Part shown: positions 3,903 through 64,000 of the stretch, piece by piece
Position numbering within the stretch: position 1 is the first letter of the stretch
Layout: each line of letters opens with the position of its first letter
Source of the DNA: Minisyncoccota bacterium
Lineage (GTDB): Bacteria > Patescibacteriota > Minisyncoccia > Phycocordibacterales > Phycocordibacteraceae
Assembly: GCA_035627595.1 (NCBI GenBank)
Contig: DASPLK010000001.1
Span: 69,619 to 133,618, forward strand
Length of the DNA: 64,000 bases
Direction of reading: 5' to 3'
Notes under the pieces: model-generated
Databases searched by the model: none
The model's input: the letters and a program-made list of their open reading frames with translations, nothing else
What the model was told of the DNA's origin: nothing
Translations under genes and position numbers: made by a program

Positions 3903-5003
3903 CTACTGATTCATTGGCATCACAAGATATAGGAAGGACGCGTCTCCAGATCCGCGCATGACCAAAGGGCGGCCGATACCTGACGCTGAGAGAGTAAGAC
4001 TCTCGGCAGTAATCAGCGGGAGAGGAGCTGAGAGGTATCGATGGTTAAAGGAGAGCTCGATAGTGTCTCCGACAACTGACGCGGGGATAGATTCTGAAGT
4101 CTCACCAATATCATTGTTGCGTGCAGTAAGTGCTACCTGCTTCTCTTTAGAAGAAACTGAGAGGCGCACTTTTTGAAAAGTATCGGAGAAGATGGCAGTA
4201 CGGCGGAGTGCTGATTCAAGATCCTTACGGAGAAGTGTTGCCTCTGAAACGAATGCTTTAGGGATGATTTGTGCGTAATCAGGGTATGAGAGCGTAACAA
4301 GACGGGTTGTCACCATGCCAGAAGCCCAAGAAAACGCACATTGGTGCTCATCAACAAGCACTTCTACCGCATCATCTGGAAGCGTCTGAATGATGTCTAT
4401 AGCGTTCTTTGCTGGAATGAGTATGGAGAACGGATCCATCTTGCCGGAAACGGACAACTTTTTCTCCGCGAGGCGGAAGGAGTCGGTCGCGACCGCCTTA
4501 AGCGTACCCCCTTCAAATGAGAGCAGAATACTCGCGAGCTCAGGTCGAACAGTTGATGGAGATGCGCAGGACGCGACTGAGGTTACGAGAGATACCAGAG
4601 ATGCTCCTGGAAGCGAGAATTTGGCCTTAGGAGACTCAGGAAACGGGAGGGTGGGAAAATCCTCGAATGGAAGGGTCTTCATTTGGCTACGGCCCATCTG
4701 GGAGGTAATGACGACTGTCTCTCCCCCATACTCAAGAGACACAGTGCCTCCCCCAGTAAACGAGGAGGTCATCTCCCGAAGCGTGGCGGCTGGAAGCACA
4801 ACGACACCAGGCGCTTTGATATCGCCTGCGACTTTATAGTCGATACCAGTCTCAAGGTTAGTTGCACGTAGCTTTATACCGTCGTCGCCTGCGACTATGG
4901 CGATGCCGGAGAGAACTGGGAGTGTTGCTGAACGCCGTTCTGCGAACCTGGCGACTGCGCCCACGGCTTGGGCTAGTTCTTTCTTATCTACAGTTATGAT
5001 CAT
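3903..5003 (-). CDS. dnaN: DNA polymerase III beta sliding clamp
   Basis: 366 aa; N-terminus MIITVDKKELAQAVGAVARFAERRSATLPVLSGIAIVAGDDGIKLRATNLETGI; classic dnaA-dnaN synteny. Confidence 0.9.
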   Translation of the reverse strand: MIITVDKKELAQAVGAVARFAERRSATLPVLSGIAIVAGDDGIKLRATNLETGIDYKVAGDIKAPGVVVLPAATLREMTSSFTGGGTVSLEYGGETVVITSQMGRSQMKTLPFEDFPTLPFPESPKAKFSLPGASLVSLVTSVASCASPSTVRPELASILLSFEGGTLKAVATDSFRLAEKKLSVSGKMDPFSILIPAKNAIDIIQTLPDDAVEVLVDEHQCAFSWASGMVTTRLVTLSYPDYAQIIPKAFVSEATLLRKDLESALRRTAIFSDTFQKVRLSVSSKEKQVALTARNNDIGETSESIPASVVGDTIELSFNHRYLSAPLPLITAESLTLSASGIGRPLVMRGSGDASFLYLVMPMNQ

Positions 5004-5223: not shown

Positions 5224-6570
5224 CTATACCAACAAGCTACGGATATCTTGGATCTCTTTTGCAAGCTCCGCGTCGCTCACTATCTCACGCTTCACCTTCT
5301 CACAAGAGTGAATGACGGTTGTGTGGTCGCGGCCACCAAGCTTCGTGCCGATTGTTGGATAAGAGACAGAGAAATCCTCGCGGAGAATATACATAATCAC
5401 CTGCCGCGGCCTGACCACTTCCCTTCTGCGAGTCTTCTCATAGATACTTTCCTCATCAATGCCGTAGAACTCTGCGACTTTAGACACCACATGTTTTACC
5501 GAAACAGTCTTCGTTGGGCGTGAGAATGAGCGTAAGGACTGCTTCACCTCCGCAATATCCGGTGGCACTCCCTTTACCTGCGTGTGACAGACAATGGAGT
5601 TGATAACTCCCTCGAGCTCACGGATGTTGCCTGAAATAGAAGTCGCCACGAACTCCACCACCTCGTCAGAGAGCGTCACTCCGTTAGCCGCAGCCTTTTT
5701 ACGCACTATGGCCATACGGCTTTCAGTATCTGGCTCACTAATATCAACCGTCATGCCGGCCAAGAATCGGCCTTTGAGACGTTCAGCGATATCTGGAATA
5801 GATGCGGGCGCGCGGTCAGAGGAGAAGATGATCTGCTTATTGTTGTCGTGGAGTGTGTTGAATAGGTGGAATACCTCCTCTTGGGTCTTCTCCCGCTTAG
5901 CGAAGAACTGCACATCATCCATGATCAAAAGGTCGTAGTGCCTATACTTCTCTTTGAATCTGTTTGCGGTGCCGTTTTGAATAGCGTCCGTGTACTCATT
6001 ACCAAACTGCTCTGAGGAGAGATAGTAGACCTTACGGGTCGGGTACATCTTCTTAAACTGGTTCCCTATCGCCTGGATGAGGTGTGTTTTACCGCGTCCG
6101 GTCTCGCCGTAGATAAAGAGTGGATTGTAGAGAATGCCAGGATTCTTTATAGCTGCTTGTGCCGCTGCGTGCGCAAGCTCATTGAAGGATCCCACCACAA
6201 ACGTGTCGAAGGTGTAGCGAGGATTGAGATTGTCACTCTTATTCTTATAGAAATCGTTCAAAGGGAGCTCCACGGTAGGCTGCGGACGCTTCACCTCCTT
6301 AGGCTTCCGGGCGATATCCTTAACGATGTCGTACTCAACGTTGCGGTACTCATAAGAAACACCGCGGACTATCTTCAAAAGGAGTGTATGGAACTTCTTA
6401 AGGTACCAATCGCGATAGAATTGGCTCGGAACACCAATATGCACGACATTGTCCTCTATCTTTACGATCGAGCTGTCGCGGAACCAGGTATTGAAGTTAG
6501 CGGGAGAAATGGAAAGCTCGACCTGCGATAGAACATATTCCCAAAGTTCATGCGGATCTGACTTATTCAT
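5224..6570 (-). CDS. dnaA: chromosomal replication initiator DnaA
   Basis: 448 aa; Walker A GETGRGKTHL, AAA+ box, C-terminal DNA-binding domain (VIMYILREDF..., KLGGRDHTTVIH). Confidence 0.95.
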   Translation of the reverse strand: MNKSDPHELWEYVLSQVELSISPANFNTWFRDSSIVKIEDNVVHIGVPSQFYRDWYLKKFHTLLLKIVRGVSYEYRNVEYDIVKDIARKPKEVKRPQPTVELPLNDFYKNKSDNLNPRYTFDTFVVGSFNELAHAAAQAAIKNPGILYNPLFIYGETGRGKTHLIQAIGNQFKKMYPTRKVYYLSSEQFGNEYTDAIQNGTANRFKEKYRHYDLLIMDDVQFFAKREKTQEEVFHLFNTLHDNNKQIIFSSDRAPASIPDIAERLKGRFLAGMTVDISEPDTESRMAIVRKKAAANGVTLSDEVVEFVATSISGNIRELEGVINSIVCHTQVKGVPPDIAEVKQSLRSFSRPTKTVSVKHVVSKVAEFYGIDEESIYEKTRRREVVRPRQVIMYILREDFSVSYPTIGTKLGGRDHTTVIHSCEKVKREIVSDAELAKEIQDIRSLLV

Positions 6571-55438: not shown

Positions 55439-55861
55439 ATGCATTTCACACTCTATGCCGATGGCGGATCGCGTGGAAACCCAGGACCTGCAGGGGCCGG
55501 CGCGGTTGTGTTTGATCAGGGTGGCAAACGCGTCGTCGAGGTAGCGGATTTTCTCGGAGTTGCGACGAATAACATAGCTGAGTACGAGGCGGTCTTGCGT
55601 GGGCTTGTCGCACTTAAGGATGCGTACCCTGAGGGTTTCTTTATGCATGCAACGGTCACCGTGAAGATGGATAGTAAGCTTGTCATTGAGCAGATGAAAG
55701 GCGCATATCGCGTGAAGCATCCAAACCTCATTCCGCGGCACCTGGAGATTAAGAATCTTATTGCCCGATACTTCTCAACAGTGGAGTTCGTACATGTGCC
55801 TAGAGCGCAGAACGCGGATGCAGATGCGCTTGCCAATAAAGCGATGGACGCTGGCAGATGA
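55439..55861 (+). CDS. rnhA: ribonuclease HI
   Basis: MHFTLYADGGSRGNPGPAGAGAV..., TNNIAEYEA, ...DSKLVIEQM..., RAQNADADALAN; TATACT 9 nt upstream of the ATG. Confidence 0.8.
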   Translation: MHFTLYADGGSRGNPGPAGAGAVVFDQGGKRVVEVADFLGVATNNIAEYEAVLRGLVALKDAYPEGFFMHATVTVKMDSKLVIEQMKGAYRVKHPNLIPRHLEIKNLIARYFSTVEFVHVPRAQNADADALANKAMDAGR

Positions 55862-56676
55862 GCGTAAGGCGCGCTTTTATGAGGAAATTTCACTACCTTA
55901 CCGCAAGCGCCGCAATCTTAATAGGTATTGCACTCATATTTAGTTGGATAATTGAATCCTTTCCATCCCCCGAACAGAAGGCACATGATTTAATTGTCGA
56001 TTTAAATGCAAAAGCCGGTCTTAAATCACAAATAGAAATATCTGCTGACGGAAATTCCAAAGAGACATATCGCGTTCAAAGAGTTGTGGATGGCGATACT
56101 CTTGTAGTTGATATAAGCGGCTCCGAAATAACGTTGCGGTTGATTGGTGTGAATACACCCGAAACAGTCGATCCTAGGAAGCCAGTGGAGTGTTTTGGAA
56201 AGGAAGCATCTGCACAAACTACTTCGTTGCTCGCAGGTCAGAATGTTCTACTAGGATTCGATAGTTCTCAAGGCAATTGGGATAAATATAATCGCCTGCT
56301 TACATATGTGTACCGCGAGGATGGTCTGTTCATCAACAAGTATCTAATCGAAAACGGGTATGGACACGAATACACATACAACACGCCATATAAGTTTCAA
56401 GAGGAATTTGATGAGGCAGAGGAATATGCTCGCGAAAATAAAAAAGGTTTATGGGCACCTGAAGCGTGTAAGGAGTTCGTAGAAACGCAAAACACAGGCA
56501 AAAGGACAGAGCCTATCGAAACAGACGGTCTTAGTTATACTTGCGCGGTAAATTCTTACAACTGCTCAGACTTTGAGAACAAAGCACAAGCTCAGAATAT
56601 TTATCTAGCGTGTGGCGGCTTGCAAGCTGATGTGCACAAATTAGATGCAGATAGAGATGGTGAAGCGTGCGAATAG
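55858..56676 (+). CDS. membrane-anchored thermonuclease (SNase) with a C-terminal Excalibur Ca-binding domain
   Basis: N-terminal TM; SNase core VVDGDTLVV...RLIGVNTPE...; Excalibur DADRDGEACE; AT-rich relative to neighbours. Confidence 0.8.
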   Translation: MSVRRAFMRKFHYLTASAAILIGIALIFSWIIESFPSPEQKAHDLIVDLNAKAGLKSQIEISADGNSKETYRVQRVVDGDTLVVDISGSEITLRLIGVNTPETVDPRKPVECFGKEASAQTTSLLAGQNVLLGFDSSQGNWDKYNRLLTYVYREDGLFINKYLIENGYGHEYTYNTPYKFQEEFDEAEEYARENKKGLWAPEACKEFVETQNTGKRTEPIETDGLSYTCAVNSYNCSDFENKAQAQNIYLACGGLQADVHKLDADRDGEACE

Positions 56677-59198: not shown

Positions 59199-59459
59199 AT
59201 GATGGATCTTATGAAGCCTCGAACTAATGTATTCATAGAGTATCTCGGTTGGTATGGCGCAATTGCGATAGTTACTGCCTATGGGCTCTATGCATTTGGC
59301 GTATGGGAAGCGGATAACATCTGGTACCACCTACTCAACCTCACGGGCGCAACTGGAATTATCGTAGTCTCAATCTATAAGAAGGCATGGCAGCCTGCTG
59401 TTGTGAATGTGATGTGGGTGGCACTCGCTGCGTACGCACTGTACGTATATCTGATATAG
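59199..59459 (+). CDS. small 2-3 TM membrane protein (86 aa), hypothetical
   Basis: W/Y-rich TM segments (GWYGAIAIVTAYGLYAFGVW; GATGIIVVSIY; VMWVALAAYALYVYLI). Confidence 0.45.
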   Translation: MMDLMKPRTNVFIEYLGWYGAIAIVTAYGLYAFGVWEADNIWYHLLNLTGATGIIVVSIYKKAWQPAVVNVMWVALAAYALYVYLI

Positions 59460-59486
59460 GTCGGTCCTAACTAAAGATTTGCATTT

Positions 59487-59543
59487 ATTTACTAGCTCCT
59501 ATATATTGCTGAGGACTCCCACGGGGGAGTTTTCATTTACGAA
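59487..59543 (+). promoter_or_regulatory. rpsL promoter TTGCAT-17-TATATT plus leader hairpin ACTCCC-acg-GGGAGT
   Basis: hexamers at 59487-59515; hairpin plus TTTT at about 59502-59525 in the 5' UTR. Confidence 0.4.
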
Positions 59544-59954
59544 ATGGCCACAATCAACCAGCTATCCAAGAAGCCTCGCTCAAGCAAGGCCCGCAAGACC
59601 AAGGTAGTCGCCCTGGGTCGCGGCTTTAACACACTTAAGAACCGCCCGACCTTCTATCCGGCGCCGTTCAAGCGTGGCGTGTGCACCAAGGTGACCACCA
59701 AGACCCCCCGTAAGCCTAACTCCGCTATCCGTAAGATTGCCCGTGTCCGCCTCACCAACGGCATGGAAGTAACCGCCTACATCCCGGGCGAGGGCCACAA
59801 CCTCCAGGAGCACTCCGTCGTGCTTCTGCGCGGTGGCCGCGTGAAGGATATCGGTGTCCAGTACACTGTTGTGCGCGGTAAGCTCGATGCTGCTGGCGTA
59901 GACAAGCGCCGCCGTGGCCGCTCCCGTTACGGTGCTAAGAAGCCTAAGGCCTAA
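59544..59954 (+). CDS. rpsL: 30S ribosomal protein S12
   Basis: MATINQL...PKKPNSA(I)RK...canonical S12. Confidence 0.95.
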
Positions 59955-59959
59955 TATTT

Positions 59960-60430
59960 ATGCGCCACCCTATCAAGAACAAGCCTGTCCGCCGCCCGGA
60001 CATTCAGTACAAGTCGGAGGCTATCTCCCGCTTTATAAATACCGTAATGCTCGATGGTAAGAAGGACACTGCCCGCAAGGTTGTCTACGATGCCCTCGAT
60101 CTCATTGCTGCGCAGGAAGGTAACCCGGATCCGCTTGAGACCTTCGAGACTGCTATTCGCAACGTCGCTCCTTTGATGGAAGTCCGTTCTCGCCGCGTCG
60201 GTGGTGCAAACTACCAGGTGCCGCGCGAGGTTCCTCAGCAGCGCCGTGTATCGCTCGCATACCGTTGGCTCATCAATGCCGCTCGCGCAAAGAAGGGCAA
60301 GCCGATGGCGCAGAAACTCGCTGATGAGATCATGCTCGCCGTTAAGAACGAAGGCTCCGCTATCAAGAAGAAGGACGACATGCACCGCATGGCCGAGGCC
60401 AACAAGGCATTCGCCCACTTCGCCTGGTAA
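59960..60430 (+). CDS. rpsG: 30S ribosomal protein S7
   Basis: 156 aa, S7 signature ...VMLDGKK..., ...VEVRSRRVGGANYQVP... Confidence 0.95.
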   Translation: MRHPIKNKPVRRPDIQYKSEAISRFINTVMLDGKKDTARKVVYDALDLIAAQEGNPDPLETFETAIRNVAPLMEVRSRRVGGANYQVPREVPQQRRVSLAYRWLINAARAKKGKPMAQKLADEIMLAVKNEGSAIKKKDDMHRMAEANKAFAHFAW

Positions 60431-60435
60431 GAAGG

Positions 60436-60458
60436 ACCGCCCGAAAGGGCGGTTTTTC
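60436..60458 (+). terminator. terminator GACCGCCC-gaaa-GGGCGGT plus T5 after rpsG
   Basis: hairpin plus T-run; unusual because fusA normally follows rpsG co-transcribed. Confidence 0.6.
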
Positions 60459-60473
60459 GTTATACTGTCTGTA

Positions 60474-61082
60474 ATGAAGCACCCACGTCTTTGGATAGGT
60501 TGCCTCGTTCTTCTAATCGCCACAGGAAGCGCTATGTATCTCCACATGGCACGCGAAGTAGAGGTCGAGGTGCAGCCAACTCCAATTGCGCCTGAAGCCG
60601 TAGAGCAAGGGGCTATGCAGGTAGGGCAAGCTCCAGTGCAGGCTGTATCGCTTGCTGAGATGACCCCGCAGCATGTGACCGTCACCGGCAATACCGTACG
60701 CGTAGAGAAAGACAATCTCGAATTCGTCATCCCAGAAGGATTTAAGGTGACGCGTCTGTCTGGCTCGGATGATAGAACCCCACCGATGGTCGTGATTGAC
60801 CTAGAGAAGGATGGCAAGGAGATATCAGTGTTGGTTAACTATCCGGGCGAGTTCTACGGCGACATAGAAGAAATTGAATTGTCCGTAGAAAGCGAGGAAA
60901 AGACTGCCTGGCAACGTCCGAGCGTCCATCATCAAGCAGCAGGGCCATTTGATGTGTCATGGGGTAACGTGCGTGTCGTAGAGGATACATCGCGGTATCT
61001 CACCGTTATGTTCAAAGGCTACGCGCCAGAAGATAGGACGGCGTTTGAAGCGCTCATAGATTCGTTACGCTACGCGCCATAG
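60474..61082 (+). CDS. membrane-anchored or lipoprotein-like hypothetical protein (202 aa)
   Basis: TATACT 8 nt upstream of the ATG; signal-anchor LWIGCLVLLIATGSAMYL; the track ORF 60201 is an extension. Confidence 0.5.
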   Translation: MKHPRLWIGCLVLLIATGSAMYLHMAREVEVEVQPTPIAPEAVEQGAMQVGQAPVQAVSLAEMTPQHVTVTGNTVRVEKDNLEFVIPEGFKVTRLSGSDDRTPPMVVIDLEKDGKEISVLVNYPGEFYGDIEEIELSVESEEKTAWQRPSVHHQAAGPFDVSWGNVRVVEDTSRYLTVMFKGYAPEDRTAFEALIDSLRYAP

Positions 61083-61134
61083 GCACAAAGAAAGCGCCGC
61101 TGGGGAAACCGAGCGGCGTTTTCATTGGTCCGGG

Positions 61135-61467
61135 TCAGTGAGGCAGTATTTCCTGAGTAACATCACGAAACCCAAAGCGGGAAAGATCAATATCTCTGTA
61201 CGCAACCCAGACAACATCTGAGTGCGGGACATACGCGAACGTTGCTTCCATGCGCAGCTTAGATGCCCGGCAGAATACGGGTGTTTCATCTCCGCGCCTA
61301 CTCGCTTCTCTCAGTCGGCGCAATGAATGCTTTAGTTCGTACGACTCAAAATGTTCATCCCGTAAGACTTCCTCGGGATCAGGCATTGCGGCATGTCCCA
61401 TGGGGAGCTCCTCTTCTTCCATATAAATAGACGATGCAGGCGAGCATGGGTTACCTTTTTCTTTCAA
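61135..61467 (-). CDS. hypothetical protein (up to 110 aa; start uncertain)
   Basis: ORF only; no motifs. Confidence 0.25.
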   Translation of the reverse strand: MKEKGNPCSPASSIYMEEEELPMGHAAMPDPEEVLRDEHFESYELKHSLRRLREASRRGDETPVFCRASKLRMEATFAYVPHSDVVWVAYRDIDLSRFGFRDVTQEILPH

Positions 61468-61509
61468 TTGGGGTTATGGTATGCGGGACCTAGGGCGAAC
61501 GTGCCCGGG

Positions 61510-62412
61510 ATGGTCTTTGGAGACTCAGTTATGGAAACCCTTCGACTTGGCCTGCATAGGCCGTCGGGGGAGATCCCCGGCGGCCAGACGATCAAGAAGT
61601 ACGTGCGCATTCGCGTCGCGAATGCGCAGTGCTACGGATACCTCGGTGAGGAGCTCAAGAACGCGAGCTTCCTGCTGTTCGGCGAGACAGTGCCTCTGCT
61701 GGATGATACGGGATCCCTGTTCAAGATCCTCGTGTTCGGAAAGTATGAGGAGCTCATTCCTCCCGCCTGCGTTACCGATGAACTTATCGAATCCACGCAC
61801 TACATATCCGTGCCCTACGCCCGCGTGGTGGAGAGTGAGGACGTGAAGTCATCGCGTGAGATCAAGAAGCTCGGCAGCGAATACCTCCGCTTCACCTCGC
61901 CGGTACGCGTGGTGAAGGAAGCAGACCGCGGCACCGGCAGGCACGTGCTTGTCGAGGGTGCGGGGTGGATACCGGCGAACGCTGTTCGAGAGATCGGCGA
62001 CCACTTCCCGGACTTCGTCGAGGTCGTGGGCATGCTTATGCCTTCAAGCGTCTATGGTCATGGCGAGCGCGGCGGTTTGGCAGGCGATTGCTCGTCCGTC
62101 ATCCAGTCAGCGTGCTTGGTCTGCGGCATACCCTGCCCGCGCATTGCGGGAGACATCGCCAAGGAGTTCGGCATCCCTGTGTCGCTTTCGGCGCTTGATG
62201 GCGACCTTCGTTGCGGCGATATAGTCTGCTGGTCAGGGCACGTTGGCGTCATGCTAGACGCCACGACCATACGCCACTCGTCCGAATGGACGATGGGTCT
62301 CGCGGAGGAACCTCTCCGCGACCTCATCGCCCGCAGGCGGGAGCACGAGCCTCCCGGCAAGAGGGAAGTCACCGCCATCAGGCGTTGGCCCTTCTACAAA
62401 CCACTCCCTTAA
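61510..62412 (+). CDS. NlpC/P60 (C40) family cell-wall peptidase with N-terminal SH3b-like region
   Basis: catalytic Cys context LAGDCSSVIQSAC, His GHVGVML; about 62% GC with GC3 bias, distinct from flanks; ATG at 61510. Confidence 0.6.
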   Translation: MVFGDSVMETLRLGLHRPSGEIPGGQTIKKYVRIRVANAQCYGYLGEELKNASFLLFGETVPLLDDTGSLFKILVFGKYEELIPPACVTDELIESTHYISVPYARVVESEDVKSSREIKKLGSEYLRFTSPVRVVKEADRGTGRHVLVEGAGWIPANAVREIGDHFPDFVEVVGMLMPSSVYGHGERGGLAGDCSSVIQSACLVCGIPCPRIAGDIAKEFGIPVSLSALDGDLRCGDIVCWSGHVGVMLDATTIRHSSEWTMGLAEEPLRDLIARRREHEPPGKREVTAIRRWPFYKPLP

Positions 62413-62535
62413 GCGGGGAAAGGGCGCGGACCATTCGTTCCGCGCCCTTTTTGCACATTGCAGAGGGCGCAACTGCATGATTAAGTACGTCCTTGTGCCT
62501 GGCGAATGGTCGCTCGGGCACATGGGGAGGTCGAA

Positions 62536-62760
62536 ATGAAACGGCAAACGATCAAATTGCTCACCTGGATCTTCCTGGGCCTCGGGGCCGTCCTCGCAGG
62601 CTCGGGCATTCTCGGCTGGAATCTGCCCGATGTGATGGGTGCGAACGGCGATTGGGTGCCCGGTGTGTCAGCTGGCTACACGGCCATCGGCATCTTCCTG
62701 TTCGGCATGGCGGTGATGGGCATCCTGCTCCTCGCTTTCAACAAGGTTCCGCGAACCTGA
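62536..62760 (+). CDS. small 2-TM membrane protein (74 aa), hypothetical
   Basis: strong SD GGGGAGG 5 nt upstream of ATG 62536; TM helices LLTWIFLGLGAVLAGSGILGW and AIGIFLFGMAVMGILLLAF. Confidence 0.5.
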   Translation: MKRQTIKLLTWIFLGLGAVLAGSGILGWNLPDVMGANGDWVPGVSAGYTAIGIFLFGMAVMGILLLAFNKVPRT

Positions 62761-62780
62761 GGATTCGAATGTTTTCTCAA

Positions 62781-62816
62781 GGCCCGCCGTTGCGTGATGC
62801 GCGGCGGGCCTTTCTG
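62781..62816 (+). terminator. terminator GGCCCGCCG-N12-CGGCGGGCC plus TTTCTG
   Basis: 9 bp GC stem followed by a T-rich stretch, upstream of the fusA promoter region. Confidence 0.55.
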
Positions 62817-62894
62817 TATATTCTTGCGTTTTTCACCCCAAAACCGTATCGTATCGGTAACGCCTCCGCGGCTTTTATTTTTATTCCAAGCTAT

Positions 62895-64000
62895 ATGCAA
62901 CGCGATTATCCTCTTGAGAAAGTGCGCAACTTCGGCATCGTCGCCCACGTCGACGCCGGAAAGACCACCACGTCTGAGCGAGTGCTCTACTACACAGGCT
63001 CCCAGCATAAGATCGGCGAGGTCCATGAGGGCGAGACCACGACCGACTGGATGGAACAGGAGCGCGAGCGCGGCATCACCATTACTGCAGCTGCCATTAC
63101 CTGTTTTTGGTCTAAGACCAAGGAGGAGGACAAGAAGGATGCTTCCAAGAAGTACCGCTTCAATGTTATCGATACCCCAGGGCACATCGACTTCACAGCG
63201 GAGGTGAAGCGTTCGATGCGTGTGCTCGACGGTGCAGTCGTCGTCTTTGACGGCGTTGCCGGCGTTGAGCCGCAGTCAGAGACTAACTGGCGTCTTGCCG
63301 ACGAGGCAGGTGTGCCGCGTATTTGTTTCATTAACAAGCTCGATCGTACCGGCGCATCCTTCGAGAACTCGTATAAGTCTATTCTCGAACGCTTGTCCAA
63401 GAATGCCGTACGCATGCAGATCCCGATCGGTGCAGAGGGCGACTTCGAGGGTGTCGTCGACCTTCTCGAGAGGAAGGCGTATCGCTTCGAGGGCAAGATG
63501 GGTGATGAGGTGATTCCGGGTGATTACCCAGAGAGCATGAAGGATGATGTCGAGACCTATCGTGCTGAGCTCGTCGAGCGCATTGTCGAGCATGATGAGG
63601 CGCAGATGGCAGCCTTCTTCGAGGGCAACGAGCCTTCAGTAGAGGAACTTAAGGCAACGCTCCGCAAGGCAGTCATTGCTAACCAGATCTTCCCGGTCTA
63701 CACCGGTTCTGCACTTAAGAACAAGGGTGTGCAGCTCGTTCTGGACGCGGTCGTTGACTACCTCCCCTCTCCTGTGGATTTGCCTCCAGTTAAGGGTATT
63801 AACCCAAAGACCGGAGAAGAGGTTGAGCGCGCAGCATCTGATTCAGAGCCGTTTACCGCGCTCGCTTTCAAGCTCCAGACCGACCCGTTCGTCGGAGCAC
63901 TTACCTTCTTCCGCGTATACGCGGGCTCTGTTACAGCAGGCTCGTACGTCTACAACGCGAACACCGGTAACAAGGAGCGCGTGGGCCGTATCGTGCGCCT
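62895..64000 (+). CDS. fusA: elongation factor G (5' part; continues beyond the window)
   Basis: MQRDYPLEKVRNFGIVAHVDAGKTTTSERVLYYTG...DWMEQERERGITI... G-domain motifs; no stop in-window. Confidence 0.9.
   Translation, partial: MQRDYPLEKVRNFGIVAHVDAGKTTTSERVLYYTGSQHKIGEVHEGETTTDWMEQERERGITITAAAITCFWSKTKEEDKKDASKKYRFNVIDTPGHIDFTAEVKRSMRVLDGAVVVFDGVAGVEPQSETNWRLADEAGVPRICFINKLDRTGASFENSYKSILERLSKNAVRMQIPIGAEGDFEGVVDLLERKAYRFEGKMGDEVIPGDYPESMKDDVETYRAELVERIVEHDEAQMAAFFEGNEPSVEELKATLRKAVIANQIFPVYTGSALKNKGVQLVLDAVVDYLPSPVDLPPVKGINPKTGEEVERAASDSEPFTALAFKLQTDPFVGALTFFRVYAGSVTAGSYVYNANTGNKERVGRIVR

Follow-up and report, generated by a model that had tools for sequence, protein, structure and literature searches.

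In the canonical str operon of E. coli, rpsL, rpsG, fusA and tufA follow each other in this order and are co-transcribed. We analyzed the interval between rpsG and fusA in a 64,000-nucleotide stretch of contig DASPLK010000001.1 (the window hereafter), which comes from a metagenome-assembled genome (MAG) of Candidatus Paceibacterota, within the Candidate Phyla Radiation (CPR)/Patescibacteria. All genomes compared with it are MAGs or metagenome contigs, and the best 80 loci by ribosomal protein S7 are all from MAGs of Paceibacteria, Kaiserbacteria or Parcubacteria. In the window, rpsL (59544–59954, + strand) and rpsG (59960–60430, +) make up the upstream half of the str cluster, and their products share 62–100% identity with S12 and S7 of 80 or more Paceibacteria loci. 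fusA (62895–64000, +) encodes elongation factor G (EF-G) and continues past the end of the window; its product is 80–94% identical to EF-G in related loci. The spacer between rpsG and fusA is 2,464 bp long and carries four open reading frames (ORFs). ORF1 (60474–61082, +) encodes 202 amino acids, or 182 from an alternative start at 60534. ORF2 (61135–61401) lies on the minus strand, encodes 88 amino acids and is preceded by the Shine-Dalgarno sequence GAGGAG. ORF3 (61531–62412, +) encodes 293 amino acids behind the Shine-Dalgarno sequence GGAGA, and ORF4 (62536–62760, +) encodes 74 amino acids with two hydrophobic segments behind GGGGAGG. A sequence-only reading of the window had proposed a str operon interrupted between rpsG and fusA by four genes, among them a hypothetical gene on the minus strand and a 74-amino-acid membrane protein with a Shine-Dalgarno sequence, with a strong terminator after rpsG and a further one before fusA; all of this was confirmed, and the four genes are accessory. 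The ratio of nonsynonymous to synonymous substitution rates (dN/dS) is below 1 for the homologs of ORF2, ORF3 and ORF4 alike.

Hairpins were scored by direct folding against shuffled controls, and four terminator-like hairpins were found with z of −4.2 to −5.3, each followed by a T-run. The first (60431–60458, +; −21.7 kcal/mol, z −5.1, then TTTTT) is predicted to be an intrinsic terminator that closes rpsL-rpsG. An identical copy is present in L085, which is the closest relative by S12 (100% amino acid identity) and S7 (98.7%), and a near-identical copy is present in L087. The second (61086–61127) lies between the convergent ORF1 and ORF2 and is predicted to work in both directions, having T-runs on each strand (+ strand, −29.3 kcal/mol, z −5.3; − strand, −20.7 kcal/mol, z −3.5). 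A third predicted terminator follows ORF3 (62417–62452, +; −27.6 kcal/mol, z −5.0, then TTTTT) and is kept in L087, and the fourth follows ORF4 (62780–62811, +), where a consensus terminator scanner gave a match and the whole folded stretch has z −4.2. When the scanner was run over 59300–63100, it reported this last one alone among the four, and its total count was not above that of shuffled sequences; direct folding was therefore needed to see the other three. A terminator-like hairpin after rpsG was also found at 51 of 73 related loci, many short-spacer genomes among them. Strong hairpins (ΔG ≤ −13) follow rpsG at 37 of 70 related loci, compared with 6 of 140 control windows placed within fusA.

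Promoter-like sites and leaders were found at several positions. A consensus scan placed one promoter-like site upstream of rpsL (59478–59507, +). Another, together with a leader, stands upstream of fusA (62823–62894, +) and reads TTGCGT, 17 nucleotides, TATCGT at 62823–62851. About 85 nucleotides upstream of fusA are kept across seven genomes irrespective of spacer content, and they follow the pattern TTGCGT, a 17-nucleotide spacer, and TATCGT or TATCTT; a small hairpin and U-run come next. ORF3 also has a conserved upstream block (61450–61530, +), which consists of a −10-like TATGGT (61475–61480), a short 5′ leader that contains a hairpin, and the Shine-Dalgarno sequence. This block differs from that of L085 by one indel in about 85 nucleotides and is also kept in L087, L081 and L084. 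Distant ORF3 homologs have an equivalent GGGTATACT/TATGGT element upstream, and the −10-like element of the ORF3 upstream blocks is either TATGGT or TATACT. A riboswitch or other structured RNA in the spacer was considered and rejected, as Rfam matches were all far under the gathering scores. For five ORF3 leaders, the covariation term from RNAalifold was near zero, and the leader hairpin was no stabler than shuffled sequences. Since the structured-RNA tests gave no support, the conserved block upstream of ORF3 is read as a promoter and 5′ leader. Just upstream of the ORF4 Shine-Dalgarno sequence, there is another hairpin (62495–62521, +). Its stem is GTGCCTG...CGGGCAC in the window and GTGTCTG...CAGACAC in L087, so that two bases have changed and pairing is kept. 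This hairpin may be a small regulatory leader.

The predicted terminator and the conserved leader suggest that rpsL-rpsG and fusA are probably separate transcription units in the lineage of the window. The order rpsL, rpsG, fusA is the same as in the canonical str operon, and in relatives tuf and the S10 genes come next. Unlike in the canonical operon, rpsG is followed by a predicted terminator and then by 2,464 bp with four independently terminated genes, and fusA has its own conserved promoter-like leader. A single contiguous transcript of rpsG and fusA does not agree with the spacer, the predicted terminator after rpsG, the three further predicted terminators and the fusA-specific leader. 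Because the source is a MAG, an assembly or binning artefact, in which a chimeric contig joins rpsG and fusA through unrelated DNA, had to be considered. We rejected it and give it practically no weight, because independent assemblies from ENA, JGI, Logan and NCBI recover the same gene order and the junctions match L085 and L087 base for base.

ORF3 is 100% identical to NCBI locus VEA92_00815, and its fold was recognized through its relatives. A profile of 12 homologs searched against PDB sequences matched 3npf, 3pvq/4r0k (dipeptidyl-peptidase VI, DPP VI) and 3h41 (YkfC of Bacillus cereus, BcYkfC) with E values of 1e-20 to 1e-22. An AlphaFold model built from an alignment of eight sequences has a predicted local distance difference test score (pLDDT) of 80 and a predicted template modeling score (pTM) of 0.80, and its full-length template modeling (TM) score is 0.64–0.65 to 3h41, 3npf and 4r0k, although identity to the solved structures is only 12–16%. 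In the model, two SH3b-like barrels are followed by an NlpC/P60 domain, and ORF3 homologs carry the Pfam domains SH3_16 and SH3_3. D186-C187-S188, H237 and H249 are invariant across the 12 homologs, and Cys187, His237 and His249 align with the triad Cys238, His291 and His303 of BcYkfC, as expected of the catalytic residues of NlpC/P60 (PF00877). The sequence-only reading had called ORF3 an NlpC/P60 peptidase. This holds by homologs and structure, but not for the window protein taken alone, which scores 15.4 bits against a Pfam gathering cutoff of 23; homologs pass the cutoff with 27.7 bits (P0003) and 54.6 bits (L012). Thus, the assignment of ORF3 to NlpC/P60 is secured through its homologs and the modeled structure alone.

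The YkfC subfamily is defined by Tyr118 in the first SH3b domain and Asp256 in the catalytic domain (PMC2954226). ORF3 shares with YkfC and DPP VI the two N-terminal SH3b domains, the C-terminal NlpC/P60 domain, the Cys-His-His triad and an equivalent of Tyr118, namely Y72, which is nearly invariant and aligns with Tyr118 of YkfC (chain index 96 of 3h41). Unlike these enzymes, the ORF3 subfamily has Ile in place of Asp256, Ala in place of Ser257 and His in place of Trp228. The window has Ile205, in PRIAGD where BcYkfC has PRDSGP. Among 129 top family members with a readable motif, the residue at this position is Asp in 97 and Asn in 22; Ile is confined to the five-member subfamily of the window (P0001–P0005), and the distant homologs L012, L011, L004 and L005 keep Asp in PRD(S/A/T). 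In the set of residues that recognizes γ-D-Glu, Y175, D186 and S188 are present, while Trp228 is replaced by His177 and Ser257 by Ala206. Equivalents of Tyr226, Asp237, Ser239 and Arg255 are retained, and the pocket motifs of the subfamily are PRIAGD and YGHGERGG. No N-terminal hydrophobic signal was found in ORF3 or in about 40 top homologs whose N-termini were inspected, and B. subtilis YkfC, a cytoplasmic enzyme that recycles peptidoglycan peptides, likewise has no signal peptide (PMC2954226). ORF3 is most likely a cytoplasmic amidase of the YkfC kind for peptidoglycan peptides, with a remodelled S2 pocket. It would work in the manner of YkfC, but lacks Asp256, one of the residues by which the subfamily is defined. 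By its fold, its catalytic triad and its characterized homologs, it would probably cut the γ-D-Glu–diamino-acid bond for recycling or salvage. The gene is found within the str cluster, in contrast to ykfC genes that stand beside ykfB or dpp genes. In Chlamydia, which also has a reduced genome, a Bacillus-type YkfC has been reported to recycle peptidoglycan peptides (PMC9928106). ORF3 resembles that enzyme, as described there, in being an NlpC/P60 YkfC homolog kept in a reduced genome; it differs in being known from sequence and a model, in its pocket residues, and in its unrelated lineage and gene context.

It is improbable that ORF3 is instead an exported cell-wall hydrolase, either an autolysin or a weapon against the host bacterium of a presumed episymbiont. 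Many SH3b-NlpC/P60 proteins are extracellular peptidoglycan hydrolases, as seen from the PDB matches and PMC4600125, B. cereus YkfC has a signal peptide (PMC2954226), and loss of the Asp256 gate could in principle open the pocket to glycan-attached peptides. However, ORF3 and its family have neither a signal peptide nor a transmembrane segment, no secretion-system or holin gene is adjacent, and the best full-length structural matches are the YkfC and DPP VI enzymes.

The interval that contains ORF3 varies widely among relatives. In 73 distinct related loci holding both rpsG and fusA, spacer lengths lie between 39 and 5,918 bp, with at most 250 bp in 24 loci and more in 49. S7 identity to the window is 82% or higher at 19 loci, and 18 of these have an ORF-carrying spacer of at least 396 bp. 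Most of the spacer ORFs are singletons (67 of 101), and the ORF3 family is the largest family. Spacers that were scanned for their contents carry a pair of PIN toxin and SocA/Panacea antitoxin, a PaaX-like regulator, GlmM, IspG, a PEBP protein and a pilin-LamG protein. Thus, the rpsG-fusA interval is a hotspot of gene turnover across the clade. A literature search for rpsG-fusA insertions turned up nothing specific to CPR; hotspots of gene turnover flanked by core genes have been described by Oliveira et al. 2017 (PMC5635113). The interval resembles those hotspots in its fixed position between core genes, its mostly unrelated accessory genes including toxin-antitoxin modules, and the absence of an integrase. 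It is unlike them in that the pattern spans species and genera of MAGs and not the pan-genome of one species, in that it lies within a cluster of ribosomal protein and elongation factor genes, and in that one tenant family, ORF3, is kept long-term.

Some tenants are of the housekeeping type: GlmM (phosphoglucosamine mutase) is found in L074, with a homolog grouped by blastp clustering in L077, and IspG is found in L050. The slot is thus not limited to dispensable genes. A Peptidase_M15_4 gene also occupies the slot of L004, L005, L012 and L013, which fits a peptidoglycan-peptide theme for the slot. This LAS-type metallopeptidase, a second hydrolase of peptidoglycan peptides, has no signal peptide; it lies at about 11100–11850 in L004, 7350–7920 in L005 and 5660–6210 in L012, in each case adjoining the YkfC-like gene, and it stands alone in the spacer of L013. 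This arrangement suggests that M15_4 and the YkfC-like protein form a two-enzyme module for peptidoglycan peptides that was lost from the lineage of the window. Neither an M15 peptidase nor a GlmM partner was found within the 64-kb window.

In 13 other assemblies (L081, L084, L085, L087, L088, L089, L090, L091, L092, L004, L005, L011 and L012), an ORF3-family gene comes after rpsG, either directly or behind no more than two small genes, at about 79% down to about 28% identity. The homolog in L087 is 79% identical to that of the window and stands in the order rpsG, ORF3, ORF4 homolog, fusA. Those of L084 (69%) and of L081/L082/L083 (66%) lie between rpsG and fusA, and that of L085 (60%) follows rpsG on a contig that extends to the start of fusA. 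The homologs of L012 (32%), L004 (29%) and L005 (28%), and that of L011, which was grouped by blastp clustering, are within the spacer as well. The next relatives were obtained from a full hidden Markov model (HMM) search of 1.84 billion representatives. P0011, P0012, P0013, P0014 and P0017 are all just downstream of rpsL-rpsG, again separated from it by no more than two small genes, and where the contig is long enough they are seen to lie upstream of fusA. P0026, a more distant homolog, is in an unrelated context. A metagenome scan for further close ORF3 loci gave the L085 contig again and nothing else.

It had been proposed from the sequence that the stretch at 61.5–62.8 kb differs from its flanks in GC content and in GC content at third codon positions (GC3), and was acquired horizontally. 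The contrast was overstated. GC/GC3 is 0.61/0.75 for ORF3, 0.61/0.74 for rpsL, 0.57/0.70 for rpsG and 0.56/0.68 for fusA, with a mean GC3 of 0.57 (standard deviation 0.065) for 63 genes of the window. The codon-position bias of ORF3 is thus that of the highly expressed str genes, from which it is not set apart. The GC content of ORF3 homologs follows that of each host locus (0.45–0.64), and dN/dS of ORF3 is 0.09–0.31, indicating purifying selection. The same gene, with matching composition, is thus present at the same position in relatives, which is the finding that speaks against a newly acquired ORF3. The proposed comparison of rpsG-fusA spacing confirmed that the spacing is variable and showed at the same time that ORF3 is recurrent there, not new. 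Nor did the database search lead to phage or other foreign kin: the closest ORF3 homologs are all from the str context of Paceibacteria.

We consider it very improbable that the whole 2.4-kb block was recently acquired from a foreign lineage or a phage. In favor of it, no other gene of the window has as high a GC3 as ORF3 (z about +2.7 relative to the gene mean), the site varies among relatives, and both ORF1 and ORF2 are orphans. However, the GC3 of ORF3 equals that of rpsL, rpsG and fusA, the GC of the homologs tracks the host, and synteny of ORF3 extends down to about 30% identity. Furthermore, ORF3 had no tblastn match in 50,697 phage records, a PADLOC defence scan of the window block gave none, and a PHROG scan gave only a marginal match (E 0.0025), to a part of a tail protein that resembles NlpC. 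No integrase, tRNA, or meaningful direct or inverted flanking repeats were found at the spacer of the window. A mobile genomic island or prophage remnant was rejected on these grounds, namely the lack of an integrase, a tRNA, border repeats and a match to a phage genome. Because its GC3 equals that of its str neighbors and its homologs hold the same site in 13 assemblies, ORF3 is not a recent foreign insert but a regular long-term tenant of an old accessory-gene slot.

The other genes of the spacer are less widely kept than ORF3. Blastn aligned window 60326–60461 with L087 3–138 and window 61450–62529 with L087 140–1205; the 988 bp between (60462–61449), which begin after the rpsG terminator, end before the upstream block of ORF3 and amount to exactly ORF1+ORF2, are absent from L087, L081 and L084. 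This block is lineage-specific, and neither a target-site duplication nor terminal repeats were seen at it. At 4825–4935 of L085, what is left of ORF1 is its start codon (ATGAAGC), followed out of frame by its final 17 codons (EDKAALESLIDSLRYVP*). This remnant is a clean scar of an internal deletion, and the next gene encodes a different, multi-pass membrane protein of 171 amino acids. The L085 spacer also keeps ORF3 and a homolog of ORF2 (55%). Because L085 keeps both the ORF1 scar and an ORF2 homolog, ORF1 and ORF2 predate the split of the window and L085, and they are decaying in L085.

ORF1 matched only itself among 5.8 billion proteins and had no match in Pfam, PHROG, PADLOC or NCBIfam. 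Its single-sequence AlphaFold model is unreliable (pLDDT 50). It is an orphan with a possible N-terminal membrane helix followed by a β-rich domain. The earlier description of ORF1 as lipoprotein-like was rejected: a lipobox L-[AS]-[GA]-C is required after a hydrophobic region, but in MKHPRLWIGC, the only cysteine close to the N-terminus (Cys10, in WIGC) comes before the hydrophobic stretch, and Trp occupies position −3. Moreover, other gene callers start ORF1 at 60534 (P0009), by which the hydrophobic stretch is gone, and so this stretch is at best an N-terminal membrane anchor. Right after fusA in L092 (7487–8080), there is a gene of 197 amino acids that is weakly similar to ORF1 (29% over 86 amino acids, pairwise E 5e-4). 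The similarity is a hint that small anchored proteins near the str cluster may form a family that evolves fast. ORF2 is 55% identical to an 88-amino-acid minus-strand gene at the equal position in L085 (dN 0.43, dS saturated). This is its single homolog, as ORF2 also matched only itself in the search of 5.8 billion proteins. ORF4 is predicted to have two transmembrane segments. It shares 36% identity with a 75-amino-acid gene at the equal position in L087; a KGG-repeat stress protein takes its place in L084 and L088.

The history of ORF3 does not follow that of its flanks. Compared with L088, the window has an identity of 0.96 in rpsG and 0.89 in fusA but 0.46 in ORF3; compared with L081, the values are 0.81, 0.86 and 0.71. 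Pairwise ORF3 identity is uncorrelated with the identity of rpsG and fusA (Spearman −0.14 and 0.03). We made neighbor-joining trees of nine taxa with 200 bootstrap replicates from rpsG+fusA and from ORF3. In the rpsG+fusA tree, the window is grouped with L088 (100%), L004 with L005 and L090 (100%), and L081 with L084 (99%). In the ORF3 tree, the window is grouped with L081 and L084 (100%), L088 with L090 (91%), and L004 with L005 (100%). The allele classes of the leader and of ORF3 are also spread discordantly with the flank clades. Similarity between the window and L085 is a mosaic: rpsL-rpsG is 92% identical as DNA, the leaders of ORF3 and fusA have about one difference each, and the ORF2 and ORF3 proteins are 55–60% identical. 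The conflict between the flank and ORF3 trees, together with this mosaic, suggests recombination at the locus, and the tree conflict suggests that ORF3 alleles have been exchanged between related lineages. The route of exchange would probably be homologous recombination with the conserved rpsG and fusA as arms, following the logic of hotspots flanked by core genes (PMC5635113). The near-identical leaders are found at 61450–61530 and 62810–62894 of the window and at 5919–6000 and 7270–7345 of L085, between which dS of rpsG is 0.70. They reflect either very strong selection on non-coding blocks or recombination breakpoints.

A purely vertical history was weighed against exchange. ORF3 would be ancestral with fast and uneven evolution, and the spacers would differ by lineage-specific deletion and by de novo or orphan gain, without recombination. 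The deep synteny of ORF3 fits this, as do the sister pairs L081/L084, L004/L005 and L091/L012, which agree in both trees, the variation of ORF3 dN/dS from 0.09 to 0.31 between pairs, and the deletion remnant of ORF1 in L085, which represents local decay. The 100% grouping of the window with L088 in the flanks and with L081 and L084 in ORF3, the lack of correlation in identity, and the discordant allele classes of leader and ORF3 do not fit it, and we regard a purely vertical history as rather unlikely. Horizontal acquisition as proposed from the sequence fails for ORF3 on GC content and synteny, and survives in other forms, namely the ORF1+ORF2 block, the turnover hotspot and the probable exchange of alleles within the clade.

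Taken together, we think it fairly probable that the 2.46-kb stretch is an old, permissive accessory-gene slot between separately transcribed halves of the str cluster, with ORF3 as a long-term YkfC-like tenant whose alleles are exchanged. Transcription of rpsL-rpsG would end at the intrinsic terminator and begin anew for fusA at a conserved promoter and leader of its own. DNA lying past the first and ahead of the second would be expression-neutral, so that genes placed there would leave the expression of translation genes undisturbed and could come and go. ORF3 would be a tenant kept long-term, in whose subfamily the pocket that reads L-Ala's free amine appears to be remodelled. ORF1, ORF2 and ORF4 would be small, lineage-specific genes of fast turnover, each with its own transcription unit, and ORF3 alleles would swap between related lineages through homologous recombination in the rpsG and fusA arms. 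A stronger proposal is that in Paceibacteria the interval from the rpsG terminator to the fusA promoter is a recombination-driven cassette site with the near-invariant translation genes as homology arms, where diverged lineages swap small genes and alleles of a YkfC-like peptidase that has no signal peptide, and that the allele class of the window has a pocket re-engineered (Asp256 to Ile, Ser257 to Ala, Trp228 to His) for a new range of salvage substrates; we hold this as a tentative possibility.

Several points weigh against this interpretation. The trees are neighbor-joining trees on short alignments, in which unequal rates could mimic part of the conflict, and the part that moved may be either ORF3 or the flanks. 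The comparison set is made up solely of MAGs and metagenome contigs. The terminators and promoters are predictions from sequence, and ORF3 has no more than a weak −35 element upstream. As for the protein, the Pfam score of the window ORF3 is itself under the curated threshold, its substrate may differ from that of YkfC because Asp256, Ser257 and Trp228 of the pocket are missing, and its cytoplasmic location is deduced solely from the absent signal peptide.

The str cluster is often taken as a fixed, co-transcribed landmark. In this CPR lineage it is split, probably into two transcription units, and the gap is a site of gene turnover, which matters for operon-based annotation and for assumptions on marker-gene synteny in MAGs. 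The YkfC-like tenant, together with M15 in some relatives, hints that salvage of peptidoglycan peptides is important in reduced genomes, as in Chlamydia, and the ORF3 subfamily with its altered pocket is a concrete target for biochemistry. If the pocket is indeed re-engineered as proposed, an organism of minimal biosynthetic capacity would gain a new range of substrates for the salvage of peptidoglycan peptides. The divergent YkfC-like peptidase, in an unusual, conserved position where it splits the str cluster, is a lineage-specific variation and does not overturn the current understanding; it is not new in a categorical sense, and its interest to specialists in CPR and the cell wall is moderate.

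Two further observations were made outside the spacer. The real compositional outlier of the window is a gene at 55858–56676 (+), which encodes 272 amino acids with staphylococcal-nuclease (SNase) and Excalibur domains. Its GC is 0.42 and its GC3 0.38, where the means of the window are 0.53 and 0.57, and horizontal acquisition is more plausible for this gene than for the str spacer. Directly upstream of rpsL, four relatives have a minus-strand gene for a lipase-like LCAT-domain protein of 900–1045 amino acids (L081, 1682–4852; L084, 1653–4927; L085, 304–3844; L092, 1–2184), which is accompanied by a gene of 127–140 amino acids in L081, L084 and L085. The window has neither of these genes upstream of rpsL and has a membrane protein of the CBU_0592 family instead. 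Upstream of rpsL, a second variable site may adjoin the str cluster.

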